Assembly: GCA_964589825.1 (NCBI GenBank)
Contig: CAZPUS010000010.1
Coordinates: 14,862 to 78,861 of the forward strand
Origin: an uncultured Fibrobacterota bacterium
GTDB lineage: Bacteria > Fibrobacterota > Chitinivibrionia > Chitinivibrionales > WJKA01
Direction of reading: 5' to 3'
DNA: 64,000 bases
Of the stretch, positions 7,161 to 64,000 are shown in pieces. Both the position numbers and the translations under genes were made by a program. Numbering within the stretch: position 1 is the stretch's first letter; every line of letters begins with the position of its first letter. The notes under the pieces were generated by a model. That model saw only the letters and a program-made list of their open reading frames with translations. It was not told where the DNA came from and did no database searches.

Positions 7161-7182
7161 TTACATACGCTCCTGGTCTAAT

Positions 7183-8564: not shown

Positions 8565-8621
8565 CCTAAATTGCGCGGTTTTTTATGGAAAGCTGTTGTC
8601 ATCAAAACACCTCAGGTTAGG
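8565..8621 (+). repeat. possible short (57-nt) derivative of the inverted-repeat element family (copy G)
   Basis: CCTAAATTGCGCGGTTTTTTATGGAAAGCTG resembles the 5' part of copies A/B/E (CCyrAATTGnrCGrTT...TTTTATGAAAGCTG). The ends CCTAAATTG / CAGGTTAGG can pair (7 WC, 1 G-T, 1 mismatch). It lies 23 nt upstream of the mgtE start. Confidence 0.35.
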
Positions 8622-8644
8622 TTCAAATCATTCAAGGAGCTGCA

Positions 8645-9979
8645 GTGGCCTCTCCCGATGCATACATGCACAGCGAAGTTACTCATCTTCGCAACAGAAT
8701 ACACGGTAAAAGTGTTCCCGAAATTGTGGAATCGCTCGACTCCCTTGAAAAAGGCGACCGAATTATGCTCTTTCGCAGCCTGCCCAGAGATACCGCGGCC
8801 GATGTATTCGCACAACTCGATCCCGGAGACCAGGATAAGCTGCTGGATGAGCTCGGTGACCGTGTAACGCGTGAAATTCTCGAACGTCTCGAGCCGGATG
8901 AACGAACCGCACTTTTTGAAGAACTTCCCGCAGAGGTCACTACCCGGCTGATGGGGCTTCTTAACAAGGAGGATTTCAAAGAGACAATGTGGCTGCTGGG
9001 CTACCCGCAGGAAAGCATCGGCCGCCTTATGACACCCGACTATATTGCCGTAAAGCCCCACTGGAGTGTCGCACACGCTCTTTCTCATATCCGCCAGCAA
9101 GGTCGTGCCTACGGAGAGACAATCAGTCGTGTTTTCGTCACCGATACTGCCGGAAAACTACTCGATGATATAAAACTGCAGCGTTTTATCCTTGCAGAGC
9201 CCGATGCAACGGTTGAACAGATTATGGACTACTCTTTTGTATGCCTCTCCGCATTCGACGATCGAGAAGAAGCGGTGCGAATCATGAAGAAATACAATAT
9301 CGCATCGATCGCTATTCTCGATTCGCAGGGGATCCTCATTGGTATAGTTACTATAGATGACATGCTCGACGTCGCGGAGCAGGAAGTAACAGAAGACATC
9401 CATAAATCAGCATCTCTCTCTCCGCTGGAACGTCAATACAGCAGCACCGGTCCGTTGAACCTTTACAAAAAACGAATCGGGTGGCTAACAGGACTCGTAC
9501 TGATGAATACCATTTCAGCGGGTATTATTACCTACTTTGAACATCGCCTCAGTGCAACAATCGGACTCGTTGCCTTTATCCCCATACTACTGGGAACCGG
9601 CGGAAACGTCGGTGCCCAGTCCGCCACCCTTATCATCCGGGCACTCGTGACCCAGGATATCGAACCATCCGAATGGGTTCGTGCCCTTGTAAAGGAGTGT
9701 GTAGTCGGCCTGCTGCTGGGACTCTCTCTCGCGATCCTTATCTGGATAATCAGTCAGATAAAAACAGGAACCGGTATGCACGCGGTGGAACTGGGCGTCA
9801 CCGTCGCCTTCACCATGGTAGCTATCGTGGTCGTGGCAAACATCCTGGGAGTGGTATTCCCCTTTATCCTATCCAGCCTCCGTATCGATCCTGCTATTGC
9901 GAGTACCCCGCTTATTACCACGCTTGCCGACGCCACGGGCCTTATCATCTATTTCTCTGTGGCAAACGCGATTTTTTAG
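8645..9979 (+). CDS. mgtE: magnesium transporter MgtE
   Basis: 444 aa. It has an acidic MgtE_N region, two CBS-like modules and a C-terminal 5-TM domain with GTGGNVGAQS and PLITTLADATGLIIYF. The GTG start at 8645 is preceded by AAGGAG at 8634-8639. Confidence 0.9.
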   Translation: MASPDAYMHSEVTHLRNRIHGKSVPEIVESLDSLEKGDRIMLFRSLPRDTAADVFAQLDPGDQDKLLDELGDRVTREILERLEPDERTALFEELPAEVTTRLMGLLNKEDFKETMWLLGYPQESIGRLMTPDYIAVKPHWSVAHALSHIRQQGRAYGETISRVFVTDTAGKLLDDIKLQRFILAEPDATVEQIMDYSFVCLSAFDDREEAVRIMKKYNIASIAILDSQGILIGIVTIDDMLDVAEQEVTEDIHKSASLSPLERQYSSTGPLNLYKKRIGWLTGLVLMNTISAGIITYFEHRLSATIGLVAFIPILLGTGGNVGAQSATLIIRALVTQDIEPSEWVRALVKECVVGLLLGLSLAILIWIISQIKTGTGMHAVELGVTVAFTMVAIVVVANILGVVFPFILSSLRIDPAIASTPLITTLADATGLIIYFSVANAIF

Positions 9980-10040
9980 CTTTTTTTGTGTACCACCCCG
10001 ACGCGGCTGCGAATGTACCGGTTACATCGGTTGAACTTCG

Positions 10041-10913
10041 TTACCCTCCGAGTCGTATCCTACTGCCGAGTGTCACGGTAAAAAAATGGAGCCAGTTTTT
10101 CACATAGCCGTCTCCCGGACCGACATCATCGGTATTTGTCCCGACCGCGCCTCCTCCGAGATAACGCAGGGTCAGATTAAGAGAGCCTCTGCCATCCATT
10201 ACCCCGACACCGGTACGCACCGCAGCATCGAGAATCGCACCAACCACCTCCTCATCGCTGCCGTTGAGATAACTTACGGGCGCGTAAAAGCCATCCGCCT
10301 CGGCCCCGCAATAGAATCCATTGTCGAAATGATGACGTGCATGAAACTTCAGCACCGGAACCGGTCCGATATCTCTGTTGTCCCGGTAGCGTGTGCCGTC
10401 AAGCGATTCGAATACGATGCGGGCGTTGCGAATCTGCAACGAAATACCGGCCCCCAGCATAGTCGCCTTTGATCGACTGAAATCATACATCCAGCTCACC
10501 CGGTAAAAAGGAAATGCATAGACAAAACGCATTGGAGTGCCCGGTTCAAACACCTGCCTGTCTACTACGAGAGAATCCCGCACCGAGGCAGTTGTCTCAA
10601 GCTTCAGCGGCTGATACAGCAACACAAAGATATGTCGCGTCCCCACTCTCATGTCCATACCGAATCGGGAAAATGCAAAGAGGATATCCTGACCACCACT
10701 TTTTCGATAGTCGAAGTATGTCCCTTTTTTATCAAACTGTATGCGGTGATCAATTACTCCCAGAAATCCCTGCTCCATGGAAAGCTGCACCGAAGAAACA
10801 GGATCCGGTGAACCAGAAGCGAACGTATTCGATATACCGATACAGATGAAACCCAGAACAGCAGCAACGCGCCAATGTCGTAGTGCGACACTAAAAAATC
10901 TACTGCACTTCAT
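10041..10913 (-). CDS. hypothetical exported protein (beta-rich, outer-membrane-like)
   Basis: 290 aa with signal-like MKCSRFFSVALRHWRVAAVLGFICIGISNTFASG. It is rich in Gly/Tyr/Phe/Arg. No family recognised. Confidence 0.5.
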   Translation of the reverse strand: MKCSRFFSVALRHWRVAAVLGFICIGISNTFASGSPDPVSSVQLSMEQGFLGVIDHRIQFDKKGTYFDYRKSGGQDILFAFSRFGMDMRVGTRHIFVLLYQPLKLETTASVRDSLVVDRQVFEPGTPMRFVYAFPFYRVSWMYDFSRSKATMLGAGISLQIRNARIVFESLDGTRYRDNRDIGPVPVLKFHARHHFDNGFYCGAEADGFYAPVSYLNGSDEEVVGAILDAAVRTGVGVMDGRGSLNLTLRYLGGGAVGTNTDDVGPGDGYVKNWLHFFTVTLGSRIRLGG

Positions 10914-10935
10914 AATAGTCCCCCGCTTTCTTTAC

Positions 10936-11096
10936 CCTGAATTGAACGATTGTTTTAATGAAAGCTACGGTGAACCGTGCATGCTTTCGTGCTCTCGAAA
11001 ATTGCGGGGCAACCTTATTTGTTGGCTCTTGGTTTTCAAGAATGCAAGAGTTGTGCCGATGGCAGCAGCTTCACAAACAGAATTGCTCGATTCAGG
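10936..11096 (+). repeat. inverted-repeat-bounded conserved noncoding element, copy A (161 nt)
   Basis: The terminal inverted repeat is CCTGAATTGAACGATT (10936-10951) / AATTGCTCGATTCAGG (11081-11096). Internal blocks shared with copies B, C and D are TTGTTTTAATGAAAGCT, CTCGAAAA...TTTTCAAG and GATGGCAGCAGCTTC. It is flanked by TTTAC on both sides. Intergenic. Confidence 0.8.
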
Positions 11097-11376
11097 TTTA
11101 CGTAACACGTTTAATAATCGTGATCCATAGAAATTAAAGAGAAATAACATGAAACCGGTTCATGCTGTCATTATTTGAGGGTACGCGTTTTCAGGGTGTG
11201 ATAATCCGGACTCCATCACTGCCCGGTCATCTCTGATCCGGAAAACGAAGAAGAGGCACTCCCGGAATGGTGCTGTGGTATGAAAACCCGGCGTTATCCC
11301 GTGCGGATATTACGTGTTGAAAAAAACTGCAACCGTCTGTCCTTTACGCCTTCTGTACCATGCCTGTTCCTGCGCA

Positions 11377-12138
11377 TCAGCGTCTGCCATATCGTCCGTA
11401 GGATATGTTTCTGTCGGTTGTATTGGCATTCTGTTCTTTCTGAGCCTCTCCCGAAGCTGCTGCGGGTATGCCCTGAGAGGCATTTGCGGAGGATTTTTCG
11501 ACAGATGTGTGAGATTGCTGTCTGGATTCGTTCTGTGAAGACGCAGACGAATTATGCCCGGGAGACAGAGACGCGCCCGGTCCCTGCGATGATGAGGTGG
11601 TAGCATCTTTTGCGGTCTCAGACGGCTTGGACGCCGCGGTCTTTGCAAAAGGGGCTCGCTTTTTCTGAGTACCGTAGCTCTGTCCGGTCTTGGATTGACC
11701 AGACTCGCTCCGGTTACGCATGGCGTTCGAATCTCCATTGCGGGAGGATTCTTGGCCTCGATCCTTTTTTGAAGGACCCTTGTCTGAGGGTTGCCCGTTA
11801 TTATTCGACGAAAACTGTTTTTTATTATTAAACTGTCTCTTTGCATGAGTACTTTTTTTCTTCGGTTTTGGCCCCCTTTGCATGTCCTTGCGAGCTTTCT
11901 TTTGAGTCTGCTCCATACTTTTCAGTTTCTTATTCACATCCTTCAGATTCTGTTCCACTTCACTCGATGCTGGCTTTCTGCTGTTTTTTCTGTCAGGCTG
12001 ATACCTTTTGGAAGTGTGATAAGAACTGCGTGAAGACCCATATGTCTCTATTTTTTTCGCGGTACGAAGCGCCAGAATAAGCGTGACGGTCTGAACACAC
12101 AAAATTATTGTCAATAATGCAATTACTGCTGAAATCAT
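11377..12138 (-). CDS. hypothetical single-pass membrane protein with long Lys/Ser/Gln/Asn-rich disordered tail
   Basis: 253-aa ORF. An N-terminal TM helix (MISAVIALLTIILCVQTVTLILAL) is followed by low-complexity sequence. A second frame on the same strand is also open (11310..11846), so the coding call is tentative. Confidence 0.45.
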   Translation of the reverse strand: MISAVIALLTIILCVQTVTLILALRTAKKIETYGSSRSSYHTSKRYQPDRKNSRKPASSEVEQNLKDVNKKLKSMEQTQKKARKDMQRGPKPKKKSTHAKRQFNNKKQFSSNNNGQPSDKGPSKKDRGQESSRNGDSNAMRNRSESGQSKTGQSYGTQKKRAPFAKTAASKPSETAKDATTSSSQGPGASLSPGHNSSASSQNESRQQSHTSVEKSSANASQGIPAAASGEAQKEQNANTTDRNISYGRYGRR

Positions 12139-12465
12139 AGTCTATACTCCGTTTAGTTAACATTACCAGCTTTATAAGAGAAACCGTATCCCACCGCTGG
12201 GCACGATACCTAAAACCGGTACTTGAAAAATGACCGGGTGACGTGCATTGGGTTAACTACCGGGGAGTTTTCATTGGTCCGTAATGCTTTGTACCGGGCA
12301 GCAGATCTGTTTAAATACGCACTAACATGCAAGGGTCACAAGCGTAGTGCACCCTGCGTGTTACATCCGGCACATTACGAATACCACGAAGTGCCTCTTC
12401 ATCTGTAAATTACCGTCTTTTCAAAGAGCGTATATACGAAAAATACATTCTAGAAAATATCCATG

Positions 12466-12627
12466 CATGAATGCAACGGTTGATTTTATGAAAGCTGCGA
12501 TGAGCCGTGCTGCTATTGTGTTCTTAAAAAGTGTAAGACAACCTTGCTGGTTGTCTCAATGATTTTCGAGAATATGCACGTAGTACGGATGACAACAAAT
12601 TTCGCACACAAATCCGCTCAATTCGGG
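12466..12627 (+). repeat. inverted-repeat-bounded conserved noncoding element, copy B (162 nt)
   Basis: CATGAATGCAACGGTTGATTTTATGAAAGCTGCGATGAGCCGTG...GACAACCTTGCTGGTTGTC...TTTTCGAGAAT...CCGCTCAATTCGGG. By hand alignment it is about 80 percent identical to copy C over a 97-nt core. Intergenic. Confidence 0.8.
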
Positions 12628-12710
12628 TCATAGTATCATAACGATAGCTACACGCAGCGACAGGCACCCGATACCCTAACGCGACCTTCCGCCATGCGGG
12701 CCAGGCAGTA

Positions 12711-42372: not shown

Positions 42373-42750
42373 AGGCTCTTCGGGGCTGCTCTCTATATTA
42401 TACTCATCGGCTGAAAAAATGTCAACCTGAAGTCTGTTAACTACCGCGTTTTTTCACATTTTTTGCCCTTTGAACATAATTGATTGTCTGCATTAATGCG
42501 ATATGCCCAGCACCAACTGTGCTAAGGTGCAGATCAATGCCGACAGGCTGAAAAAAACCTCTTGCCCGGCAGAAGTAGCAACTCCCGTCAAATCACGTGG
42601 CGATTGGACCCGGGGTAGCATATTCGTTTAATATCGGCAGGTATACACCTGAATTGAGAATAAATGCCGCCCGTTTTTAACATCGGATTATCTATACCCA
42701 CTCCGTAACACGAGGAGCGTAATACTATACCCTGAAAATGGACCGGCCAT

Positions 42751-44325
42751 TCAGTCTGATGGCTGCGCAAACTCGGCGATTATTCCTTTTTTCTTTTTAA
42801 ATCCATATCCCTTATAAAAATAGATGCGTTTAGCGACTACCCCTCCCCGGTATAAAACCACCGTATCCGCAGATGAAAGCCTCTCGAAAAAGGAGGCAAA
42901 ATATGATGAATCGGCACGGTAGCGACTCGTGGCAATACAAATGGCGTCCTTGCCCTCTGTAGCGGTATGTGCATTCCATATCCAGAAGCCGCGTGCATCA
43001 CCCTGGTTAAGACAAACTACCGGATATCGACCGGACGTCGCGAATGCGATCTCGCCGCACAAAAACCACTTATGGGCACAGAGCATATGCGTCTGCGGGG
43101 TAATTCCCTGTGCAGAGAGGTAGTGCGATACGCCCTCCCAGCCATACGTATCGAGAGTGGGATCATTGCGCACATCCCGCGATGATATCCATCCCATTTT
43201 TTCCAGTTTCTCCAGATGCAGTATCCCATAATGTGTATGCAATACCACAAGTACATACAGCGATGCAACAAAGACCACGGTAATAATTGCACCCACGCGA
43301 ATGCGCGGGCCCCGAAGCGCCCGGGCCAGCCACGGCCCGGTACCGGCAATGACAGCCGCATATCCGGGCAGTGTCCAGTGAGGAAGTATCGATTTGAAAA
43401 ATGAAACACCAAGAAAAAGTACCACCGGTATTGTTCCGAAAAAGAAAATAAAACGATACGTCCAATGCGACCCCGCAATTGTAAAACGCAGCGAACGCCA
43501 CATTATTACCACAAAAGGGACAAAAAGCATCGGCGTACAATAAAGCGCCTGTCCTCCCAGTGCTTCGAGAAAACGAAGCGGCTTTACCGATGAACCGATC
43601 GCCCGACCACCCTGAAATGCAAACGAAGCCCATTCGTGATGCATATTCCAGATAACTACGGGAAGGGCGAGGGTAAGTGCACAGAGCGCATATATATATG
43701 GACCCGGACGGAAAAAACGTCGTGGCCGGTAACATAGCAAATAGGTCCACAACAATATACCGAGGAATGCGCCATGATATTTTGACAAAAAGGCGCATCC
43801 GGTGGCGAGCCCCGCCGCAATCCATAACCATGGGCGGGGAGCATCATCACGAACCAGAGGAACGAAACACAATAGCGTAATCAACCAGAAAAAAATGAGC
43901 GGGCCATCCGGCACCACCGATATGCCGCTGATTATGAAAAAAAGCGGAGTAACGGTAAAAATCGCCGCAGCGCACAAAGCTCCCTTATGCGATCCGAATT
44001 GTCGGGCAAGCCAGTATATAAGTACCGTATCCGCAGAAAAAAGAATAAGCGTACAGAGTCTAAGGGTGAATGACGTCACGGCCCCAAGAAGCCAGGGGCC
44101 CAGTCCGGCACAAAGCCCCACAACCGGGGGATGATCGAAATAACTGAGCGCGGGATAACGAGAATAGACAAAATAGTACGCCTCATCAAAACCCGGCTGC
44201 ACCACTAATGATGCACAGATACGCACACACAAAGAAATAAAGGTAAGCAGAAGCAGACCCCGGGGAAAAAAACGTATGAGTCGATATTCAAGTGGCGTAT
44301 GCATATCTACAAAATACGAAATCAC
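42751..44325 (-). CDS. GT-C glycosyltransferase of the ArnT/PMT (GT39/GT83) family
   Basis: 524 aa with more than 10 TM segments. The first loop motif FDEAYYFVYSRYPALSYFDHPPVVG is typical of ArnT-like lipid-A/undecaprenyl-phosphate-sugar transferases. Confidence 0.8.
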   Translation of the reverse strand: MISYFVDMHTPLEYRLIRFFPRGLLLLTFISLCVRICASLVVQPGFDEAYYFVYSRYPALSYFDHPPVVGLCAGLGPWLLGAVTSFTLRLCTLILFSADTVLIYWLARQFGSHKGALCAAAIFTVTPLFFIISGISVVPDGPLIFFWLITLLCFVPLVRDDAPRPWLWIAAGLATGCAFLSKYHGAFLGILLWTYLLCYRPRRFFRPGPYIYALCALTLALPVVIWNMHHEWASFAFQGGRAIGSSVKPLRFLEALGGQALYCTPMLFVPFVVIMWRSLRFTIAGSHWTYRFIFFFGTIPVVLFLGVSFFKSILPHWTLPGYAAVIAGTGPWLARALRGPRIRVGAIITVVFVASLYVLVVLHTHYGILHLEKLEKMGWISSRDVRNDPTLDTYGWEGVSHYLSAQGITPQTHMLCAHKWFLCGEIAFATSGRYPVVCLNQGDARGFWIWNAHTATEGKDAICIATSRYRADSSYFASFFERLSSADTVVLYRGGVVAKRIYFYKGYGFKKKKGIIAEFAQPSD

Positions 44326-49274: not shown

Positions 49275-49541
49275 CTAATGCAGAATGGATGGCAGGGAAA
49301 ATAGCTTACGGGATCTACCATATCCGAAACGCGCATAGAAAATACCGAAAATTCCGAAGAACAATTTGTACACATCTACAACCCGTTCTGTTACAAAAAA
49401 CCAAGATACCCAGCTGCAGCTTACTACCTTCATGATAACCTTATACCTGTATTGAACGATTCCCCTTGTAAAAGCTGCTGCCATCCGCACTGCGATTATC
49501 TGCGCATTACCGTTGTGGAAAAAATCGTGTTCCGAATTCAT
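49275..49541 (-). CDS. possible small hydrophobic protein
   Basis: 88-aa ORF. Its stop abuts the start codon of the downstream acyltransferase gene, and its 5' end overlaps the upstream gene by 35 nt. Hydrophobic stretches are VVSCSWVSWFFV and LFFGIFGIFYARFG. No family recognised. Confidence 0.3.
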   Translation of the reverse strand: MNSEHDFFHNGNAQIIAVRMAAAFTRGIVQYRYKVIMKVVSCSWVSWFFVTERVVDVYKLFFGIFGIFYARFGYGRSRKLFSLPSILH

Positions 49542-50688
49542 TGTTACACAGCTTCAAAATATCCGCGATCCTGTGCATATAGGTATGATGTGTTCGCACA
49601 TGGGCGCATCCCCGTTGAGCAATTTCTCTTCGCAATGTTTCATTTGCCAGATAATAGTCGATAAGAGCTTCCAACTGCTGTGGGGTTTCGTAAACCGCAA
49701 GCTGCTGCCTGGGTCCCCGTGTATGGAAATACTCGAATACACACGGTTTGGCGCTGCTAATAATAAAACAGCCGGCAGAAAGACAATCAAATATCCGTTG
49801 TGTGAATCCGTCCCGAATAACGACGCGGTTAATATCGAGATTTACCCGTGTCTGTTGATAGGTAGTGCATAGATTTTTATAATATCCGACATTCGCAGAG
49901 ACCTTGCTTTTCGGAAGATCGTGTACCCACAATGCATCACCGAATACCACAAAATCCTCATATCGGTCGGCGAGAGAAACAACCGTTGATTTGCGATACA
50001 AATAGCCTGTAAAATGCTTCACTATAAAAACGAGTTTTTCGAATGAAACCGGAAATGGCCTTCGTGCTCCTGACTGCAAAAGCTTTTGCACCTCCTGATC
50101 CAGATTAATGCGAAGATTCCTCCGGTATCGTTGCAGCAACTGCTGAAGTATATCCTGAATACTCTCCAGATAATCACCACATTCCATCACAAACCTGTCG
50201 ATCAGTTCTCTGTATGAATTACCCACAAAACAGGCATCGCGCTCGGGCAGGACCCCCGCTGAAGGATAAAACAGCGATGCGTCTGTGGCGAGTGGTACAA
50301 AAAAAACACGATACCCAAGACGACGCAATGGCTGGACGTATCCTCTGTCAGAAACCAGGGTGAGACGGTTCGCAAGAGGACTGTAATAATAGCCGCGCAT
50401 TTTCCTGTAGTAAAGAGGATCATCCACGCACCAGTCAATATGGGCGATATCGTTTTTCAGCAAAAAATATTCGAGAATACCCTCGGTATCCATGCCCCAG
50501 TCATTAATGGTAACGAGTATTCCCACACGATGTTTTTGTAACACAGCGCAGGTTTTTTCCGCACTGCATGCATCGACAACCTCTGCGGTTTGCAGCACGA
50601 TACACCGTACATTGGCACACTTTCGGAACGCATTACAAACCTCACGTTGAACAAGATTACCCTGATATAAAAAAGCAACGTTTACCAT
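49507..50688 (-). CDS. CgeB-family / DUF3880-type glycosyltransferase-like protein
   Basis: 393 aa. The C-terminal GT1-like segment GFTQRIFDCLSAGCFIISS...LAVYETPQQLEALIDYYLANETLRREIAQRGCAHVRTHHTYMHR matches the CgeB-type pattern. Confidence 0.65.
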   Translation of the reverse strand: MVNVAFLYQGNLVQREVCNAFRKCANVRCIVLQTAEVVDACSAEKTCAVLQKHRVGILVTINDWGMDTEGILEYFLLKNDIAHIDWCVDDPLYYRKMRGYYYSPLANRLTLVSDRGYVQPLRRLGYRVFFVPLATDASLFYPSAGVLPERDACFVGNSYRELIDRFVMECGDYLESIQDILQQLLQRYRRNLRINLDQEVQKLLQSGARRPFPVSFEKLVFIVKHFTGYLYRKSTVVSLADRYEDFVVFGDALWVHDLPKSKVSANVGYYKNLCTTYQQTRVNLDINRVVIRDGFTQRIFDCLSAGCFIISSAKPCVFEYFHTRGPRQQLAVYETPQQLEALIDYYLANETLRREIAQRGCAHVRTHHTYMHRIADILKLCNNEFGTRFFPQR

Positions 50689-52114: not shown

Positions 52115-52195
52115 ACCCAAATTGAGCGATGGGCTTCGAAAACAGAATAGCAGCACGGCTCACCGCAGCTTTTACAAAATAATCGCTCAATTTAA
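52115..52195 (+). repeat. internally deleted (81-nt) member of the inverted-repeat element family, copy E
   Basis: There is a perfect 12-bp inverted repeat AAATTGAGCGAT (52118-52129) / ATCGCTCAATTT (52181-52192). The 5' end CCCAAATTGAGCGATGG matches copy A in 13 of 17 positions. The 3' end GCAGCTTTTACAAAATAATCGCTCAATTTAAG parallels copy D ACAGATTCCGCTTACAAAACCGCTCAATTCAGG. Confidence 0.6.
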
Positions 52196-52208
52196 GACAT
52201 ATATGTTT

Positions 52209-52248
52209 AATTAAAAACGGCCTTCACAACACAAATTGCGAAGGCCGT
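52209..52248 (-). terminator. intrinsic terminator after the DUF2914-like gene
   Basis: ACGGCCTTC (52217-52225) / GAAGGCCGT (52240-52248) form a perfect 9-bp stem with a 14-nt loop. The minus strand continues TTTTAATT. It lies 24 nt after the stop at 52272. Confidence 0.7.
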
Positions 52249-53920: not shown

Positions 53921-55543
53921 TCATTTATTCTGTGGGACACAGTTTTCACATATTGCACCGATAAATCCTTTGAATAACGGATGCGGCTGAATTGGCCGGG
54001 ATTTGAACTCGGGATGGAATTGTGACGCAACAAACCAGGGATGATCCGGTATTTCGCATATCTCCACGAGCATACCGTCCGGAGAAAGACCGGAAAGTAC
54101 CATTCCCGCCTTTTCAAACTTTTCTTTATAGGCAGTATTAAATTCATACCGATGGCGATGCCGTTCACTGATATCCTCACATCCGTATAATTCACGGGCC
54201 CGCGTTCCTTTTACAAGCTTGCAGGGAAAGGCTCCCAGACGCATGGTGCCGCCGAGGTTCATCACTTTTTTCTGCTTCTCCATCAAATGTATGACCGGAT
54301 TTTCGGTCTGTGGCATAAGCTCAGCACTTTGCGCATCCGACAAACCGAGCACATTTCGCGCAAACTCCACCACCGCCATCTGCATGCCGAAACAAATGCC
54401 GAGAAATGGTATCCTATTCTCACGGGCGTACTTAACTGCACATATTTTGCCTTCACATCCGCGTTTGCCGAATCCGTGAGGAACTAGTATGCCGTCCGCA
54501 TCACTAAGCATTTCCGCGATCTGTGTTTCATCCATATCCTCGAAGCGTTCTGAAGAAATACTTTTGAGGTTCACTTTAGTCTGATGATGTGCTCCCGCAT
54601 GAAACAACGCCTCGTGGATTGACTTGTACGAATCGACCAATTCGGCGTATTTACCTACAATAGCCACCGTCAGCTCCCGTTCGGGGTTGATCACTCGATC
54701 GACATACTCTCGCCAGGGTTTGAGATTTCGGCGTTTGCTGTTAAGACCCAGCGCATCCACGATAGAAAAATCGAGGTTCTGTGTCGCAAATTCAAGCGGT
54801 ACCTCATAAATGGTATTCGGTACATCGAAGGCCTCGACTACCATATCCGATTCAACATTACAAAATAGCGATATCTTTCTGCGAACCTCCTTATCCAGAC
54901 GCTTCTCGGTCCTGCAGATGAGCATATCCGGTACAATTCCTATTTCACGCAATCTTCCCACCGAATGCTGCGTCGGCTTGGTTTTCACCTCTCCCGCTTT
55001 ATGCAGATACGGTATAAGCGTCACATGAACAAAGAGTACATTACTCCGGCCACGTTCGAGACGAAACTGCCGCAGCGCTTCCAGAAACGGCAAACTCTCT
55101 ATGTCACCCACCGTACCGCCGATTTCACTGATTATCACATCGACATCCGGCGATTCGAGACTCCTTATACAATCACATATTTCATTGGTCACATGCGGGA
55201 CCACCTGAACGGTCCCTCCCAGATAATCACCTCGCCGTTCTTTTTTTATAATAGAATCATAAATTTTACCTGCGGTAAAATTACAGTTTCTGTTCGTGGA
55301 GATTCCGGTGAAGCGCTCATAATGACCAAGGTCGAGATCGGTCTCGGTCCCGTCGTCGGTCACATAAACTTCTCCGTGCTGATACGGATTCATGGTGCCG
55401 GGGTCTACATTGAGGTAAGGATCATATTTCTGATGTGCAACCCGAATTTTGCGTGATTTTAAAAGAAGCCCGATCGATGCGGCGGTAATTCCCTTGCCCA
55501 GTGATGATACAACTCCTCCGGTAACGAATATATACTTCGACAT
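53921..55543 (-). CDS. pyrG: CTP synthase
   Basis: 540 aa. It has [38 protein letters not shown], and the amidotransferase motifs GICFGMQ and HRHRYEFN. Confidence 0.97.
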
Positions 55544-55987
55544 TCTACGCTCCAGCGGTTATGGTGATATGGTTAGATTCGCTGTGCTTGTTCGCCATTG
55601 CGCTGACACACCTCAGGATTTGCCGGTTTTCCAAACACGGATCTCCGTAACGTGAGTGGTGTATCCACTCCCTACCGTACGCATCTCTTTCCCATTCTCA
55701 CATTAAAAATACGGCAAATAAATTGAAAAAGCAAATACTGACTGAACCAAAGGTAACCATTCGTAAAATACAATAATCACTATCGATGCAGCGTACTGCA
55801 CATAAAACTGCCCATCATTTCCACCCCGTATATCATAACGTTTCCTGTATGATATGAGCCCAAAGACGGGGTAACATTACGCATGCCGCCACTTTTATGC
55901 GTTACACCACCAACACCGTCTTTTTATAATGTATCGACGCCGGCCATGCGAGTACCAATTCGTGTATGTCAAGAATCCTTTTTTGCG

Positions 55988-56143
55988 CCGAAAAGATCGA
56001 TTGCTTTGATGAAAGAAGCGACGAGCCTTGCTGAAAATGCGTTCTCGAAAAAGATCCGGCTGTCTTGTTGGTCGTCCCATGATTTTGGGGACGCTGCAGT
56101 ACCGATGGCAACAGATTCCGCTTACAAAACCGCTCAATTCAGG
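55988..56143 (+). repeat. inverted-repeat-bounded conserved noncoding element, copy D (156 nt)
   Basis: CCGAAAAGATCGATTGCTTTGATGAAAGAAGCGACGAGCC...GTTCTCGAAAAAG...TCTTGTTGGTCGTCC...GATTTTGGGG...CCGATGGCAACAGATTCC...CCGCTCAATTCAGG. It is followed by TTGTTTTTTTTG (56144-56155). Intergenic. Confidence 0.8.
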
Positions 56144-56471
56144 TTGTTTTTTTTGCACCAAAACAGACTTATTTGGGGACCTCCTGGGTTTCAGGATTAT
56201 AGACCTAAGTCAAGAGTCGAGCCCGGAGACCATATCGTCCCAACTGTCACCATCGTAGCATGGCTTGTGCCATGTTACTATATATTATTTTGGAAAATAT
56301 GACCTCTGCGTGCATGGATTTCACGCACGGTCCGCTTTACCGATCAGGAGTCATTTTTTCGAACAGCGCGTCTCTTATGCACACCGGTCTGCGCGTTATG
56401 CGCCTACCTTCCTGCATCATTACGTTTGTATGAACAGGCAATTCGTGAATTGTACCGATAGTGCAGATCGA

Positions 56472-56640
56472 TGAATCAGACCAAAACCGAGCGTTTTTAT
56501 TCGCGAAAGCTGCTGCAATGCGCACTACTCTTATATCCTCGAAAACCATGAGACAACCAACAAGGTCGCCCATACTTTTCGAGAACAAAATAGCACCACG
56601 AGTCACCGCAGCTTTCATCAAAACAACTGTTCCATTCAGG
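56472..56640 (-). repeat. inverted-repeat-bounded conserved noncoding element, copy C (169 nt)
   Basis: The minus strand reads CCTGAATGGAACAGTTGTTTTGATGAAAGCTGCGGTGACTCGTG...GTTCTCGAAAAGTATGGGCGACCTTGTTGGTTGTCTCATGGTTTTCGAGGAT...TTGCAGCAGCTTTCGCG...CTGATTCA. It contains perfect nested inverted repeats of 9 bp and 8 bp. Intergenic. Confidence 0.8.
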
Positions 56641-56765
56641 TGAGAATGAATAGACAAAAATTTCGCGCGTATCCTTGCATTTGTACCACACAAATTGTAT
56701 AGTTTTAAGGTAGGTCTGTACAGGGATAACGACAATGAAGGTTTTTACAACCAAGGATTTTCTTT

Positions 56766-59700
56766 ATGCATAACAATACAAACAATGACATTCTGCATAC
56801 TCCACGACGCACATTCTCCATTCTTTTATTCACATGTGCCGTGGTTTTTTCATTCTGTTTTTGTGCCTACCCCAAAGAATCGCGTACACTGCTTATCGCA
56901 CGCCCGGTAGACCTGGCTCTCGATGAAAAAAGCCGTCAGCCATGGGTCGGTGCATTGCTCGAAGACCTTTTTTACTATAAACTCTCGGCGCTTGAACATA
57001 CCAGAGTTGTTCCACGGGATTCTATTCTGACTCGCACCGGTAGTCGCAATAATTTTTCAGCTACGGTAAACACACAGACCTATCTTTCAATTGCCAGAGA
57101 AAAAAGTGCCGATTACTGCATATTTCAAAAATATGAGGCCGGAAATAACAAACCTGTCAAATATGTCTGTGAAGTCACCGATCCGCAAAACAACTCACAG
57201 TTAGTAACTATCGATGATGTTTTTCCCATTGGCTCGTGTGCTCATAAAACGGATTCTATCCTTCGAGTAATACTTTCGCGTTCCGACATAACCATCCCGG
57301 AACGGCTTCAGCGATTTTTCCGCTTTCCTGTTCTGGGAGACGATGAGAAGCTCCTCGAACAACTGGGTAATGTCATTTTGCGGCATCATTACGGTGCGCC
57401 GATAAAACATACCCAGCTCGCACAAAATTACCTTGCCGTCAGTAATGAAGATTCACGTATGGAACTCGCGGCATTTCGGGGTGCAATCCAGTATTTCAAG
57501 GCATCGGAATACGATAACGCGATCGATGTCTTTTCCAACATCCACGAGGTACTTCCAGAATATGGTCCTCTTTACCTGCCATTTACCATAAGTCTTCACA
57601 AAACCTCACAATTGCAGGAGGCCCTGAAAATTGCCCGTCAGGGGGAAAAAAAGATGCCCAATTCGATTCCGCTTTTACTTGCCAAAGCAAAGGTGTTCGA
57701 CAAAATTGGCAATCGAACGCAGGCTCGAAAGGTCTATAGTGAAATACGCGGCATCGATTCACTCAATCCGCACGCATTGCTGTTCTTGGCTCGAGAAAAA
57801 CTCGACGCATCCGAGCCGGAAAAGGCCCTCTCTCTTGCAAAAAAGGCGGCAATGAAGGGAGGACGTACCATAAAAGCCGATATCCTCAAAACAAAGGCTA
57901 TGGCGCTATTTGCCCTTAAAAGAAACGAGGAAGCCGAAGCTGAGTTTCTTAATGCTTCTCACTATGCACCGGAAGACGCCTCTCTTTATATTTATCTGGG
58001 GAAGGTATACCAAAGATTGGACAATTACACTAAGGCCGCGGAATACTACAGCAAAGCGGGTAATTACGAACCTGACAATTTTTCCACTTTTCACAATGCG
58101 GCGCAGGCATACGTGGCGGCGGGCAATCCTATGAAAGCATTGCAGATTTATTCACGCATAGAACGAAAATTTCCCGACAATGTCACGCTGATGAAGCATA
58201 CGGGTCTTCTGAAGCTTCGACATGCGGGGGACACATCAGATGCTTTTTTATATCTGCAGAACGCCTATGAACTCAACCGGGATGATCCACACGTGATGCT
58301 TGCACTTGGCCGGATCTATATGCATCGAACACAATACGATGATGCATTTCGTATGTTCAATACCATTCTGCAACGTCCAGAGACAAGAAATGCGGCACGC
58401 CTGGGTCTTGCCTGTCTGTATCTGCACAAAAAGCGCCCGTCCCAGTCTCTCACGTATATAAGCGAAATTCTCAAAGATACCGTTGCATTGCCACATGTAA
58501 ACCGCTATTATGGAGACGCCAAACTCATGGTCGGTGATACAGTGGGTGCCATCGAACGGTACAATACTGAAAAAAAAATGTACGGGACCTCGGTATATCT
58601 TCAACAAAAACTCGCATCTCTGTATTATGCAACACAACAGTGGGACCGGGCAGAGCAGGAATACAAAACACTGGTTTCACTCTCGCCGCAAGAGTACAAC
58701 GCCTACCTTCGTCTCTCACTCATTTATCTGCACCGGGGCAACGTCACTACCGCTCTTGAATACTGGGACAAAGCAGAAGCGCAGGGGAAACCAGATGCAC
58801 AACAATACTATCGGGCAGCCACATTACTGCTCGAACACAACAGAAAAGACCAGGCCATAACGATGTTCAGGGAATGCGTTTCCCTTAATCCTCAAAAAGA
58901 ATCGGCCTGGCAGCAACTCGCACGCATTTATTCCCGTTCCGGCAAAGACAGTATGGCAGCGGAGAGCTACATAAAACTGTATGGTATTGATAGTAAAGCA
59001 TACAGTGACGAACTCGCGCAAGCGGGGCATCTCTTTTTCAAAATAGGTGAAAACAGACCGGCTCGTGATGCATATCAGCTTTTTCTCAATGACGGTAATA
59101 CAAGTACCCGGGTTAAAATCAATCTGGCTCACATTGAATTCGCCAATGAAAATTTCTCACGAGTAATAACGCTTCTTGCCCCGGTATCAGCACGGGATAT
59201 TTCAGATACCCGCACCCATCTTATCCTCGGCACTTCGTATATGGAGGTCGAAGATTATTCCAACGCGATTCCGCCTTTGAAGAACACCATTGAGGCGGAA
59301 ACCAAAAATACGGATGCCCTTCGAATGCTTGGTTTGGCGGGTGAAAAGACCGGTAAATTTGATATGGCAGCTCAGATGTATTCCAGACTACTCGAAGTTG
59401 CGGGGATCGAATCCTATCCCGATATTGCCTATACACTCGGCCGCCTTCATGAAAAAAATAACAACTCTGAAAAAGCAAAAGCGCAATACCGAACAAACAT
59501 CCGTCATTTTCCCGGCCAGGAAAGACACTACCAGCGTCTCGCCAACCTGTTATTCAATGAAAGCAGTTATAAGGAATGTGCGCAAGTGATCGAAAATGCG
59601 CTCGGTCACACACAGTTAGAGCCTGGTGCAAAGAAACTGCTCGCCCGATGCTATGAACAACTCGACCGACGTGAAAAAGCGATAGAGTGGTACCAGAAGT

Positions 59701-61601
59701 ATCTGACTGCGGTTACTAATGACGCGGGGGCCTGGGAAGCTCTGGGTGCACTTCAATTCAAAAACCGAAGCTATGCCGAAGCTGCCGCCGCATACAAGGA
59801 AGCGAGCAGATTAGCACCCGATAATTTCGACATGGTATTCATGCAGGGAAAGGCGTATTACAAATCGAATGATTATCCAAAAGCTGCACACGCGCTTGAA
59901 AAAGCACACCAGTTGAACACCGGCAGCATTGAAGCGCTAAAATACCTCAGTCGAAGCTATGCACAAACGGGCAATACCAACGAACGCATCGATGTGCTGA
60001 AAAAGTGGATTTCCATCGAACCGAAAAACCGTGACATTCAACTTCGGCTTGCTGATGTGCTTATGCGAAATGACCGTCTCCGGGAAGCCGCCGACATACT
60101 GACCAGCGCAAGTAAATCGGAAAAGAAAAACCCTCAAATTTTCGAAAAACTCGTTACAATCTATTCAAAGCTGAATGATGATAAAAAATTGTTTCATGCA
60201 GCCCGGGAACTCGCGGCACTCAAGCCGGAAGATCCCAATGCCCATTACACACTCGCACGGTACTACCTTTCGCATAACGACACCGCCAGTGCTTCAGCAC
60301 ACCTGGAAAAGGCGGTACGATTCAGCGATGCGCATGCCCCCTCGCAATTCGAATACGCCAAACTGCAGCTACACAACGGTAATGTACACAAAGCCGTTAT
60401 ACATTTTGACCGTGCGATCGATCTCGAACCGCAAAACGGCCTTTACCTTTCCTATTTTGCGTTTGCAGCATCCCGCAAGGGCGAAATGTCTAAAGCCCTC
60501 GGCGCACTTTCGACCGCAGAAAAATCAGGTTATGGAGATGATGTGGATGCCCGATGTATGGCTGCACAGGTATATATCAACGCCGACAAGACCGTACAGG
60601 CCAAAGACGTACTACGCACCGCAATTAAATCGAACCCGGATTGTGACCAATGTTACGAAATTATCGGCAGCGCCTACATGCGGGAAGCCAATTACAAACA
60701 TGCAGTAAAAGCACTAATGAAGTCATGGGAAATCGGCGGGTTCGATCCTTCCGTATTGCTCAAACTCTCCAAATCACTCACCATTGACGGAAAGTACGAA
60801 GAAGCGGAGGACTTTCTTAAAATGGTACTCAAAAAACGCTCCGGAAATCACGAAGCGGTGTATCGTCTCGCACATATTTTTCTGCGTCGGGAAAAACTCG
60901 AAGACGCACAATCGCTTAAATCTAGATACGAAAACAGGGAAAAAACAGGATGGTATCATCTCATGAAAGGTGAAATCGCAGAATACCAGGATGAAATCAA
61001 CACCGCATTTGTATCTTATAATGTAGCCAAGCGGTTTCTGCCCGAAAATCCGGTTGTTTACAATGCAAGCGGACGCATATTTCTGCATAAGGATAAATAT
61101 GAAAAAGCGATCGTCGATTTCAGCAAGGCGCTTTCGTATGATCCCAACAACCCGCGCCTGCAGGTAAACCTCGCAAAAGCGTATAAAGCAAAAGGGGACG
61201 TCAAAGCGGCACAGGAACTCGTCTCCGGTGTATGCAAACGGTTTCCGCACAATGTCGAAGGTTCCATCACCCTTGCAAAAATTAAAGCGGAAAAAGGTTT
61301 TCACCGTGCAGCGATAGCTCTCATCGAGCAGGCGCTTTCCCATAATCCCGACAATTCCCAGCTATATCTGCAGCGGGGAAACATCGAACGCGCTCTCAAT
61401 CAGTTCGATGAAGCGGAAAAGTCATATAAAAAAGCGATCCGTAAAAGCGGCCGGGAGAACGTACGCGCCTATAAAGCGCTGGGAGATCTGTTTTACGAAA
61501 GCATCGACGACAGCAATAAGGCTGAAAAATACTACCGTAAATTCGTACAAAACGGCGGCTCCGATATTACCGTGCAGCAACGGCTCGATAAACTCAAATA
61601 A
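56766..61601 (+). CDS. giant TPR-repeat protein (1611 aa) with N-terminal hydrophobic anchor/signal and a non-TPR N-domain
   Basis: It has an N-terminal hydrophobic segment (FSILLFTCAVVFSFCFCAY) and about 230 aa of non-repeat sequence. Continuous 34-aa TPR-like repeats then run to the C-terminus, with many A..Y..A...P.N patterns. Confidence 0.85.
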   Translation: MHNNTNNDILHTPRRTFSILLFTCAVVFSFCFCAYPKESRTLLIARPVDLALDEKSRQPWVGALLEDLFYYKLSALEHTRVVPRDSILTRTGSRNNFSATVNTQTYLSIAREKSADYCIFQKYEAGNNKPVKYVCEVTDPQNNSQLVTIDDVFPIGSCAHKTDSILRVILSRSDITIPERLQRFFRFPVLGDDEKLLEQLGNVILRHHYGAPIKHTQLAQNYLAVSNEDSRMELAAFRGAIQYFKASEYDNAIDVFSNIHEVLPEYGPLYLPFTISLHKTSQLQEALKIARQGEKKMPNSIPLLLAKAKVFDKIGNRTQARKVYSEIRGIDSLNPHALLFLAREKLDASEPEKALSLAKKAAMKGGRTIKADILKTKAMALFALKRNEEAEAEFLNASHYAPEDASLYIYLGKVYQRLDNYTKAAEYYSKAGNYEPDNFSTFHNAAQAYVAAGNPMKALQIYSRIERKFPDNVTLMKHTGLLKLRHAGDTSDAFLYLQNAYELNRDDPHVMLALGRIYMHRTQYDDAFRMFNTILQRPETRNAARLGLACLYLHKKRPSQSLTYISEILKDTVALPHVNRYYGDAKLMVGDTVGAIERYNTEKKMYGTSVYLQQKLASLYYATQQWDRAEQEYKTLVSLSPQEYNAYLRLSLIYLHRGNVTTALEYWDKAEAQGKPDAQQYYRAATLLLEHNRKDQAITMFRECVSLNPQKESAWQQLARIYSRSGKDSMAAESYIKLYGIDSKAYSDELAQAGHLFFKIGENRPARDAYQLFLNDGNTSTRVKINLAHIEFANENFSRVITLLAPVSARDISDTRTHLILGTSYMEVEDYSNAIPPLKNTIEAETKNTDALRMLGLAGEKTGKFDMAAQMYSRLLEVAGIESYPDIAYTLGRLHEKNNNSEKAKAQYRTNIRHFPGQERHYQRLANLLFNESSYKECAQVIENALGHTQLEPGAKKLLARCYEQLDRREKAIEWYQKYLTAVTNDAGAWEALGALQFKNRSYAEAAAAYKEASRLAPDNFDMVFMQGKAYYKSNDYPKAAHALEKAHQLNTGSIEALKYLSRSYAQTGNTNERIDVLKKWISIEPKNRDIQLRLADVLMRNDRLREAADILTSASKSEKKNPQIFEKLVTIYSKLNDDKKLFHAARELAALKPEDPNAHYTLARYYLSHNDTASASAHLEKAVRFSDAHAPSQFEYAKLQLHNGNVHKAVIHFDRAIDLEPQNGLYLSYFAFAASRKGEMSKALGALSTAEKSGYGDDVDARCMAAQVYINADKTVQAKDVLRTAIKSNPDCDQCYEIIGSAYMREANYKHAVKALMKSWEIGGFDPSVLLKLSKSLTIDGKYEEAEDFLKMVLKKRSGNHEAVYRLAHIFLRREKLEDAQSLKSRYENREKTGWYHLMKGEIAEYQDEINTAFVSYNVAKRFLPENPVVYNASGRIFLHKDKYEKAIVDFSKALSYDPNNPRLQVNLAKAYKAKGDVKAAQELVSGVCKRFPHNVEGSITLAKIKAEKGFHRAAIALIEQALSHNPDNSQLYLQRGNIERALNQFDEAEKSYKKAIRKSGRENVRAYKALGDLFYESIDDSNKAEKYYRKFVQNGGSDITVQQRLDKLK

Positions 61602-61860
61602 GCTACAGCTACGACCGTATATCTATACATATCGCGGAATGGTGTATGAAGGCTTCTACATGTCTCCATCGTCCGCATCAGGGTTTTCTATCCAAAACAG
61701 CCCCAAATGCCAATCCCCTCTTTTCTCCGGACAGGAGTGACAAAAGGTATTTTTTTCTTGCATTGAGACAGCACAGGATCGGTACTACCCGGGGCATATG
61801 CAGTAGTCCATGCTATCTCTTATATTCTGCCATATATCAATTATTCCGGCGGGATCATTC

Positions 61861-64000
61861 ATGAAAAAGATTGCTCAAGAGAAAAAACACGACCCTGCGC
61901 ATAAAAAGAAGCGGGTAACGCGTGCACCCGCACATTCGTTACAAAACGATGCGGGGATGCAGCCACGCATGCGTCTCGGCTTCGTACTTTTATCTATCCT
62001 TACACTCACCGCGATTTTTTTCTGGCCGGTAATCAGCGCCAAAGGGGTATTCTGGAACGATTTTATCCAGCAGTATTTTCCATACCGGATTTTCGCCAGT
62101 GTTTCCCTGCGCCAGGGAGTATTCCCCTTCTGGAACCCCTACCTTTTCAGTGGCATGCCGTTTTTTGCCGACATTCAGACGGCGGTACTCTATCCGCTCA
62201 ATCTTGCACTCGTGCTCTTTTCCTCCCCCCAATGGCTCAGTCCCTACATATTCGAACTACAGATAATTCTTCATGTCGCTTTCGCCGGCTTTGCCATGTA
62301 TCTGTGTGCACGTGATTTTCGTATTTCAATGGCCGGTGCACTTTGCGCCGCACTTACATTTATGTTCTGCGGATTCACTACTGCACACATATTTCATGTG
62401 ACCATGATACATTCTCTCGGGTGGATCGTGCTGTCGATATGGGCCGTGCGGCGTATGCTCGATACCAGAAAACTTATATGGGTTGCGGCTTCCGCATTTT
62501 TCCTGTGGATGGTATGCCTTGCCGGCCATCCTCAGCTTATGCTGTATACCTATTACTGGATAGGGGCATACCTGCTCTACCATAGTATCATTTTACTGAA
62601 GGAGAAAAAAGGATATAGACCGGTCGCATTGTCAATCGGGCTATTTATAGCAGCGGTGACTCTCTCGTTTGGCCTCTCCTCTATTCAGCTGCTTCCTACC
62701 CGTGCACTGGGAGAACACTCGATACGCGCATCCATATCCTACGAAAAATCGACCGAATGTTCCCTTCGTCCCTACAGGCTGGTCACACTGATCGCTCCCA
62801 ATTTTTTCGGCACGCCCAACAATTTTTTCTCGAAAAAAAGGCCCTTTTACTGGGGAATGAGCGAAGCCGATCGGTCCCCGGGCGCTCATTATTACTGGGA
62901 AACCGCTATTTATATCGGCATTGTCCCGCTCGCACTTATGCTATGCGCCATACTCCTGGGGCGATCGCCACCGGTCGTATTCCTCTCCCTCATGAGTCTT
63001 ATATCTCTTCTGCTCGCTATGGGGAATTCTTTCTTTCTACACTGGATCGCCTATCACGTGCTGCCAGGCTTCAGTCGGTTTCGGATTCCCGGACGCTTTG
63101 CCGCAATGTTCAGCATATCCGCCAGCCTTTGTGCGGGGTTCGGTTTTATGTGGTGTATCAACAGGGCTAGATTACTTCCCGATACCATTCGCAAACGTTT
63201 TTTGACCGTTCTGGGCGTACTTGCCGCATGTGCATTCGGAATCACCATTTTGTTTCAGGCCGGTGCGTTTAACGGGAATCTCGCTTCGTTTCTTGCCTCG
63301 AGTGGAATATTCGGTCATAACATGTCCCGTCTTACGGCAATTACGGAAAAAATGATACAACCTTCTGCTGCAGGATCCATGTGGCGTTTCACCCTCTTTT
63401 TTATTCTCTTTTCAGCAGTTGTAGCCGCCGCGCTGCTGAAGAAAATATCCGCACGAACCACTGCCGCTGCATTGCTGGTGATACTCGTATTCGATCTTTT
63501 TTCGTTTGGATGGGGGTTTTGCGCCCAAAAAAAGAGCCCTGACTCCATTTATCCCCGCACGCAGCTCATACAACAGATCAAGCGCCAGTATGAAAACGAA
63601 TTATTCAGGATTAATTCACGGAATTCAAAGCCCGGTACAAAAGGCCTTAATGGCTCGTACCTGCTGTTTCATAAAAATGCCGGCAGTGTACATCGTATGT
63701 TTCTTATGGAGGGATATACTCCGCTGCGCCTGCGTAGAAAATTCATCAACCGCCGCGATGTAACGCTCGATATCCTTAACACTAAATATAAAATAGAGGT
63801 AGATCGTAAAAGCGGTAGAAAAAGCCTTGCGCTACATACCTCCTACCTTCCTCGCGCATGGATGGCATATGATTACCGTGTGGTGACCGGACAGGAGCGC
63901 ATTAAGCAAGTACTTTACTCCTCCCAATTCGATCATACCCGAGGCATAATCCTCGAGGAAAAACCCCGCTGGTCTCAGGACGAACTCCGCTTTGACAGCA
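61861..64000 (+). CDS. YfhO-family polytopic membrane protein (GT-C-like), 3' end outside window
   Basis: By hand translation the frame is open from ATG 61861 to the window end (713 codons, no stop), so it is absent from the ORF track. It contains FWNDFIQQYFPYRIFASVSLRQGVFPFWNPYLFSGMPFFADIQTAVLYP, a YfhO-type signature, and many TM segments. Confidence 0.8.
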   Translation, partial: MKKIAQEKKHDPAHKKKRVTRAPAHSLQNDAGMQPRMRLGFVLLSILTLTAIFFWPVISAKGVFWNDFIQQYFPYRIFASVSLRQGVFPFWNPYLFSGMPFFADIQTAVLYPLNLALVLFSSPQWLSPYIFELQIILHVAFAGFAMYLCARDFRISMAGALCAALTFMFCGFTTAHIFHVTMIHSLGWIVLSIWAVRRMLDTRKLIWVAASAFFLWMVCLAGHPQLMLYTYYWIGAYLLYHSIILLKEKKGYRPVALSIGLFIAAVTLSFGLSSIQLLPTRALGEHSIRASISYEKSTECSLRPYRLVTLIAPNFFGTPNNFFSKKRPFYWGMSEADRSPGAHYYWETAIYIGIVPLALMLCAILLGRSPPVVFLSLMSLISLLLAMGNSFFLHWIAYHVLPGFSRFRIPGRFAAMFSISASLCAGFGFMWCINRARLLPDTIRKRFLTVLGVLAACAFGITILFQAGAFNGNLASFLASSGIFGHNMSRLTAITEKMIQPSAAGSMWRFTLFFILFSAVVAAALLKKISARTTAAALLVILVFDLFSFGWGFCAQKKSPDSIYPRTQLIQQIKRQYENELFRINSRNSKPGTKGLNGSYLLFHKNAGSVHRMFLMEGYTPLRLRRKFINRRDVTLDILNTKYKIEVDRKSGRKSLALHTSYLPRAWMAYDYRVVTGQERIKQVLYSSQFDHTRGIILEEKPRWSQDELRFDS

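Follow-up and report, generated by a model that had tools for sequence, protein, structure and literature searches.

A gene-free spacer carries two members of a dispersed repeat family

We analysed a 64-kb stretch of DNA (hereafter the window) from an uncultured Fibrobacterota bacterium (contig CAZPUS010000010.1, positions 14,862 to 78,861), in which a 1.2-kb gap separates pyrG from a divergently oriented TPR gene. This gap holds two copies, C and D, of a palindromic element of about 160-170 bp, which is the subject of this study. The flanking genes are as follows:

53921-55543, minus strand: pyrG, with CTP_synth_N and GATase domains
56766-61601, plus strand: TPR gene, product of 1611 aa

From the pyrG start (55543, minus strand) to the TPR gene start (56766, plus strand) the gap measures 1222 nt. 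It had been described in an initial annotation as free of genes, and this holds: its only open reading frames (ORFs), 55883-56302 on the plus strand and 56337-56735 on the minus strand, both span the repeats and neither has a Pfam match. Copies C and D are also the only sequences in the gap that recur elsewhere in the window, the remainder being unique.

The initial annotation had placed four copies, A to D, at sites that our searches reproduced to within a few bases. In a MAFFT alignment of these four, mean column identity was 76% across about 190 columns. Comparing the copies pair by pair, BLASTN inside the window joined B to C (E = 1e-25, 76% over 152 nt), A to C (E = 5e-25, 78% over 136 nt) and B to D (E = 7e-17), a similarity that goes well beyond short low-complexity words. 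An iterated nhmmer profile built from the four full copies added the partial copies E, F and G and no others, and a covariance model (CM) recovered the same set. The dispersed family proposed by the annotation was thus borne out, with seven members in the window rather than the four to six it had counted. The members are listed below:

10934-11101, plus strand: copy A, full length (nhmmer E = 1.5e-52; CM 150 bits)
12466-12633, plus strand: copy B, full length (nhmmer E = 9e-54; CM 145 bits)
56473-56645, minus strand: copy C, full length, with the best-preserved hairpin (nhmmer E = 2e-54; CM 167 bits)
55986-56148, plus strand: copy D, full length, the most decayed (nhmmer E = 3e-51; CM R1 125 bits, model positions 1-169)
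52120-52200, minus strand: copy E, with an internal deletion (nhmmer E = 4e-10; CM E = 0.009, spanning model positions 1-169)
49441-49505, minus strand: copy F, 3' arm only (nhmmer E = 5e-07, 4e-12 after iteration)
8563-8614, minus strand: copy G, 3' arm only (nhmmer E = 2.5e-05, 7e-08 after iteration; CM E = 0.065)

All seven members are intergenic (7/7), intergenic DNA making up 12.5% of the window, and the family accounts for about 11% of that intergenic DNA. Copy orientation is unbiased (three plus, four minus), also with respect to the neighbouring genes. The flanks of the copies are mutually unrelated, and the neighbouring genes are functionally unrelated: they include mgtE, lipopolysaccharide glycosyltransferases, pyrG, the TPR protein gene and genes for hypothetical proteins. 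In copy E the 5' arm is fused directly to the 3' terminus; this copy follows a terminator-like hairpin and lies 65 nt upstream of the gene starting at 52055. The hairpin in question (52213-52246, minus strand) resembles an intrinsic terminator, GGCCTTC...GAAGGCC followed by TTTTT, and follows the DUF2914 gene directly, with copy E a short way downstream. Copy F begins just beyond the stop of gene 49507-50688, and copy G occupies a divergent spacer with gene 7183-8430 (minus strand) on one side and mgtE on the other.

A single minus-strand gene (11377-12138) lies between copies A and B, which are both on the plus strand. Its 253-aa product is lysine/serine-rich and of low complexity, has a hydrophobic segment at the N terminus and lacks a Pfam match. 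A reading of A and B as the ends of a composite transposon carrying this gene was rejected, as their outer flanks do not match and A carries a flanking repeat of its own. Two terminus-like remnants, 42647-42660 and 42729-42757 (both plus strand), were observed in the 378-nt gap before gene 42751-44325. They comprise ACCTGAATTGAGAA and a mini-palindrome, CCCTGAAAATGGACCGGCCATTCAGTC, that resembles a left terminus joined to a right one. The mini-palindrome may be an extremely deleted further copy or an excision footprint; neither the nhmmer profile nor the covariance model detected it.

Each full copy is one long imperfect palindrome

Each full-length copy forms a single long imperfect palindrome, with a profile self-match on the opposite strand at E = 1e-10. 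The initial annotation had correctly delimited an element of about 160 nt with conserved blocks, but it missed that these blocks and the termini are reverse complements of one another. The shared blocks GTTCTCGAAAA and TTTTCGAG are mutually reverse complementary and form the two sides of one stem, and the termini ACCTGAATnGAACG and CGCTCnATTCAGGT are inverted repeats. The hairpin is closed by the inverted termini ACCTGAATnGARCG...CGYTCnATTCAGGT, which are separated such that the element measures 157-162 bp between termini. At up to two mismatches, the terminal motif ACCTGAATnGARCG has 13 matches in the window against 2.65 expected. The terminal inverted repeats extend over about 14-30 bp (ACCTGAATnGARCGrTTgTTTTG... 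and its complement; the terminus of about 30 bp begins ACCTGAATTGAGCGGTTTTGTG) and continue inward as a palindrome of nearly full length. A local hairpin occurs within copy A only; the arms are otherwise not built of short autonomous palindromes.

Folding as RNA separated the copies. Copy C forms a single hairpin of 61-63 bp with a minimum free energy (MFE) of -72.1 kcal/mol (z -7.2 to -8.0), followed by A (-58.2 kcal/mol, z -5.1) and B (-46.6 kcal/mol, z -2.3), while copy D folds no better than shuffled sequences (z +0.68). Mapping the structure of C onto a six-sequence alignment, we found 75% of cells paired, against 38-45% when the partner was slid by one to three columns. In the same alignment, 12 pairs had changed on both sides compared with 6.4 +/- 1.9 in shuffles, and the terminal helix was kept in 78% of cells.

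The element is non-coding and matches no named RNA family

The element is non-coding. Indels of 1 and 4 nt separate the copies, mismatches show no 3-base periodicity (15/16/12 by codon position for B against C), and copy B contains three in-frame stops. These results, together with the lack of a conserved frame, uphold the initial view that the copies do not code for protein and that conservation acts at the level of nucleotides or structure. A family of small-protein genes or pseudogenes starting at a shared ATGAAAG might be suspected, given that the ATG followed by AAAG is invariant in the four full window copies and that A, C and D have open frames of 46-48 codons. However, translations from the shared ATG cease to resemble one another beyond about 15 residues, no excess of mismatches falls at third positions, the ATG is replaced by GGT in the relative L012 (see below), and the ORFs over the copies have no Pfam match. 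The conservation in this part of the element is instead accounted for by pairing with the 3' arm (GAAAGCTGC / GCAGCTTTC): the ATGAAAGCTGC block is conserved because it pairs with GCAGCTTTC in that arm. The small-protein reading is therefore very improbable and is effectively refuted by the frame, indel, periodicity and pairing evidence.

The annotation could not match the element to a named RNA or repeat family, and our Rfam searches agreed with this. At the gathering threshold, the sole Rfam match in the whole window was a tRNA gene (2134-2207, minus strand), with nothing at the repeats; at E<=10, the two repeat regions gave merely chance snoRNA matches (E>=0.16). Copy C had no BLASTN match in plasmid and phage collections, and two element patterns had none in viral contigs. 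A pattern of 20 specified bases fitting all four full copies yielded four matches in a scan of genome contigs, in unrelated phyla and all by chance, since nhmmer confined the similarity to the pattern itself. A 21-mer common to copy B and the relative L005 yielded two chance matches in a scan of metagenome contigs, a collection that evidently lacks the L005 sample. The Pfam scan of the window proteins revealed no transposase or other mobility gene.

Close relatives carry the element at different sites

We then compared the window with related sequences. The best named relatives of the pyrG protein are Chitinispirillaceae, Chitinivibrionales and Fibrobacterota metagenome-assembled genomes at 72-77% identity, and one JGI protein is 86% identical. 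The latter comes from L005 (JGI 3300037796; GC 57%), a contig with four copies of the element in 5.8 kb:

1-138: copy cut by the contig end
3276-3426: full-length, GC-rich copy
elsewhere on the contig: two fragments

A further full copy lies on L012 (Logan SRR12689553; MgtE 74% identical), at 380-552 on the minus strand, in a non-syntenic context and ending 38 nt before a start codon. The Logan contig L011 (SRR13334649) matches window positions 6991-12258 at 99.9% identity. The initial annotation had suggested looking for copies in related genomes, and those in L005 and L012 indeed exist, at sites different from those in the window. By contrast with these relatives, the more distant L008, L009/L010, L013 and L014 (74-77% pyrG identity, about 78 kb) contained no copies by nhmmer or the covariance model. 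The family is therefore confined to a narrow clade.

The gene order pyrG, AP endonuclease, DUF2914 is common to the window and L005, the latter two products being 63% and 41% identical in amino acid sequence. In L005 the two spacers of this cluster measure 179 and 217 nt and each contains a copy, whereas in the window they measure 46 and 88 nt and are element-free. In the distant relatives L008, L009, L013 and L014, pyrG lies within a carA-carB-pyrG-purF cluster; in the window and L005 it is followed by the AP-endonuclease-family gene and the DUF2914 gene, with the giant TPR gene divergent and before pyrG. This rearrangement of the pyrG cluster is common to the element-bearing clade only.

Two patches in the spacer between pyrG and the TPR gene are conserved in L005 and served as reference points:

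55704-55734, minus strand: patch upstream of pyrG, TTGCTTTTTC...GCCGTATTTTTA, about 160-190 nt before the pyrG start
56675-56711, plus strand: putative sigma-70-like promoter of the TPR gene, TTGCAT-N17-TATAGT, 55-90 nt upstream of the gene

The TTGCAT and TATAGT hexamers and their 17-nt spacing are kept at L005 205-169 (minus strand), in a patch aligned by BLASTN. This promoter sequence is thus retained in a relative with an 86% identical pyrG protein, despite the rest of the spacer having diverged past alignment. It lies outside the element and bounds, on the right, the inter-promoter spacer in which C and D are found. The pyrG-proximal patch is 81% identical to L005 446-476 (plus strand), at a similar distance from the pyrG start; it is probably the pyrG promoter region or a leader element and forms the left edge of the spacer.

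Between the two patches lie about 240 nt in L005, compared with about 940 nt in the window, where C and D form part of the additional DNA. The copy in L005 is not within this interval; it is found downstream of the TPR-type promoter. Because their positions relative to the conserved patches differ, C, D and the L005 copy are three different insertions, and orthology of either C or D with the L005 copy upstream of pyrG was rejected. Copy G was likewise rejected as an orthologue of the L012 copy upstream of mgtE, the flanking genes being unrelated.

The 1.2-kb gap would represent a divergent pyrG/TPR promoter spacer enlarged by an old insertion, D, and a young one, C. These are separate insertions of different age, because D is the most decayed (36/61 hairpin pairs kept) and C the best preserved (61/61). 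The opposing orientation of C and D, reported initially as convergent, is correct as a description; it has no visible meaning and is a coincidental clustering of separate insertions of different ages. The unique 325-nt stretch between D and C contains a terminator-like hairpin, GTAGCATGGCTTGTGCCATGTTAC, followed by a T-rich tail (56255-56278, plus strand), and a second hairpin, CGTGCATGGATTTCACGCACG, lies near it. Neither of the two has an Rfam match.

The palindrome is maintained between lineages and decays within the window

We next examined how the paired positions change. Measured against the window consensus, no double compensatory change is present in A, B or D, whose single changes mostly break pairs (9/12 in A, 11/18 in B and 16/23 in D). 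Between lineages, however, the majority of double changes preserve the pair, in L012 (9/12) as well as in L005 (7/9). The apical stem provides an example, reading ACAACC/GGTTGT in the window, CCCACC/GGTGGG in L005 and CCATCC/GGGTGG in L012. The decay of the window copies looks like neutral decay after insertion. Since compensation is found between lineages and not within the window, the palindrome is maintained in the propagating lineage and not at each inserted site. This pattern is consistent with a selfish element that relies on its inverted structure to spread, and it argues against a host function for each copy.

Possible flanking duplications and strand asymmetry

Copy A is bordered on both sides by TTTAC (5/5 matches), abutting CCTGAAT...ATTCAGG, and copy C by TCTCA and TCTGA (4/5). 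The remaining flanks matched at 3/5 positions in B, 2/5 in D, 1/5 in E and 0 in both L012 and L005. Among 42 mismatched left/right flank pairs, a 5/5 match never occurred and a 4/5 match occurred once. The two copies with the best flank matches, A and C, are also those with the two best-preserved hairpins. A 5-bp target duplication is nevertheless suggestive only.

In copies C and A the two strands differ in their capacity to fold. The window consensus contains nine G.U pairs and one A.C. As RNA, the forward strand of copy C folds at -72.1 kcal/mol and its reverse at -34.6, and copy A behaves likewise (-58.2 against -46.8); as single-stranded DNA (ssDNA), copy C reaches -27.3 kcal/mol forward (z -4.3) and -19.2 in reverse (z -1.9). 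L012 is strand-symmetric (-62.8 against -60.3). A strand-neutral comparison of arm against arm, whose mismatches are few and not independent, gave G.T:A.C counts of 13:6 in A, 13:3 in C, 7:6 in B, 6:5 in D and 4:5 in L012.

Comparison with known miniature repeats

Bacterial MITEs (miniature inverted-repeat transposable elements) are under about 200-400 bp and have terminal inverted repeats, target duplications, a long stem-loop and no transposase (Delihas 2011, PMC3184786). The element described here agrees with them in size, in having neither a transposase nor a conserved ORF, and in its terminal inverted repeats, long stem-loop and dispersed copies; its past mobility is indicated by seven copies in the window, four in L005 and one in L012 at non-orthologous sites. 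Like Correia/NEMIS of Neisseria and RUP of Streptococcus (PMC3184786), it is a small, non-coding, multi-copy intergenic sequence with truncated or internally deleted derivatives and a presence that varies between related genomes. It differs from these families in its host phylum, Fibrobacterota, in having no sequence similarity to described families (Rfam, plasmids, phages), and in a palindrome that runs through nearly the whole element, not the termini alone. Correia elements have a clear TA duplication, whereas here 5 bp are suggested in two copies.

In architecture, the closest counterparts are palindromes of the ERIC/RU type. The ERIC or intergenic repeat units RU-1 (127 bp) and RU-2 (168 bp) of enterobacteria (PMC2759123) are intergenic imperfect palindromes, which, like the present element, occur in both orientations relative to flanking genes and have short variants produced by internal deletion. 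ERIC belongs to a different phylum, and the 22-mer core of the ERIC2 primer had no match at <=3 mismatches, which is a limited test.

REPINs, doublets of REP sequences mobilised by RAYT (PMC3116915), are likewise non-autonomous hairpin repeats whose hairpin is kept in the propagating lineage. They may share with the present element a strand-specific single-stranded form, and the window copies cluster as well (C with D, A with B). The window element is however longer (about 165 nt against about 100 nt) and has no paired short (20-40 nt) REP palindromes with a GTAG/CGTC tag. Moreover, a RAYT/IS200-type insertion would make no 5-bp duplication, yet copy A has one, and no RAYT (Y1/HUH) gene was found among the window proteins scanned against Pfam.

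With respect to a possible transposase family, the ends of IS1380-family elements begin with CC and their insertions make 4-5-bp duplications, and duplications of 5 bp are also produced by miniature elements derived from Tn3. The present element starts with (A)CCTGAAT, may likewise duplicate 5 bp of its target, and has no Tn3-type GGGG terminus; derivation from IS1380, IS982 or Tn3 would be a tentative lead. An integron attC site, which would have RYYYAAC / GTTRRRY cores in an array of same-orientation cassettes near an integrase, was rejected: the termini are ACCTGAAT.../...ATTCAGGT, the copies lie scattered between housekeeping genes on either strand, and the window proteins include no integrase.

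A lineage-specific mobile element is the favoured reading

We favour a lineage-specific mobile element of the MITE or ERIC-like kind, to which we assign a probability of roughly 0.7. It is multi-copy and dispersed on both strands, with seven members in 64 kb. A transposase encoded elsewhere in the genome would recognise the inverted termini and move or copy the element into AT-rich intergenic sites, probably with a 5-bp target duplication; transposition, the duplication and the identity of the transposase are what we infer here. Only elements retaining the palindrome and the termini would keep propagating, which would explain the compensatory changes in the active lineage. Inserted copies would decay neutrally through point mutation, internal deletion (as in E) or loss of one arm (as in F and G), and any influence on adjacent genes, for instance through hairpins in read-through transcripts, would be a secondary consequence.

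Several observations weigh against this interpretation. The search for a transposase covered the window proteins alone, the intergenic DNA of the relatives is too diverged for a precise alignment of empty and filled sites, and the sample is small, with four full copies plus two or three from relatives. Target duplication is clear in two of the seven testable copies, with summed matches of 15 against a null of about 12, and an invariant T after ...CAGG leaves the exact boundary ambiguous. In addition, the G.U excess hints at a single-stranded hairpin of fixed polarity, in DNA or RNA, and a strand-specific hairpin is not needed by a classical cut-and-paste element acting on double-stranded DNA.

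An element of REPIN or IS200/IS605 type would move as ssDNA, the hairpin of one strand being the substrate of an HUH/Y1-type (RAYT-like) or other ssDNA transposase encoded once elsewhere, and would leave no target duplications. A palindrome spanning the full element rather than its termini would suit such a route, as would the greater stability of copy C as forward ssDNA, the consensus bias of nine G.T to one A.C with its counterpart in the arm mismatches of A and C, and the missing clean target duplication at most copies. The hairpin is also kept by compensatory change between lineages, and REPINs have been described as hairpin-forming non-autonomous elements in ssDNA or mRNA (PMC3116915). 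The mismatch asymmetry is, however, absent in B, D and L012, copy orientation is unbiased (three plus, four minus), and copy A is flanked by a perfect 5-bp repeat. Short palindromes of the REP type bearing a conserved GTAG/CGTC tag are absent, since a word resembling GTAG is confined to B and C and is not conserved in A, D, L005 or L012, and the Pfam scan found no RAYT or TnpA gene among the window proteins. We regard this route as unlikely.

A structured RNA useful to the host, either a multi-copy cis-regulatory hairpin or a small-RNA family transcribed from the forward strand and acting on mRNA stability, termination or translation of adjacent genes, is in our judgement quite unlikely. The forward strand does fold better in C and A, the pairing has statistical support (75% of cells paired, compared with about 40% in slid controls; 12 double changes against 6.4 +/- 1.9), and several sense copies lie shortly upstream of a start codon, by 38 nt in L012, 65 in E, 133 in G and 167 in F. 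Yet there is no conserved promoter in or before the element and no consistent terminator or T-tract after it, which makes independent small-RNA genes unlikely. C and D lie between two divergent promoters with no known transcription through them, and A, B and one fragment in L005 run antisense to the genes on either side. Within a genome the copies decay uncompensated, their neighbouring genes are functionally unrelated, their positions are not conserved between relatives, and none matches Rfam. Taking the asymmetry at face value, we leave a minor place for a strand-specific single-stranded hairpin element that is not a cut-and-paste MITE: a REPIN-like class new in Fibrobacterota whose ssDNA transposase has gone unrecognised, or a mobile hairpin RNA through which the host would tune expression of whatever gene lies behind the insertion. 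Nine G.U pairs to one A.C, compensation between lineages and the frequent positions 40-170 nt upstream of starts would all be compatible with it.

Implications

One further feature of the window concerns its right end (from about 61807 to 64000, plus strand), which is only seemingly poor in ORFs and consists of one open frame of at least 731 codons running off the window edge, which accounts for its absence from the list of ORFs.

The element explains the otherwise puzzling 1.2-kb gene-free gap before pyrG and, as far as the literature searched shows, no miniature palindromic repeat family had been described before from the Chitinivibrionia-like branch of Fibrobacterota. Metagenome assemblies break at repeats of this sort, as illustrated by the L005 contig that ends inside a copy (1-138), and the repeats can be mis-called as ORFs. 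They could also be used as strain markers, and transcripts of adjacent genes may gain hairpins from them. No general concept is changed by these results, similar families being known from many phyla; overall, the element most likely represents a new lineage-specific family of the familiar miniature palindromic mobile repeats.

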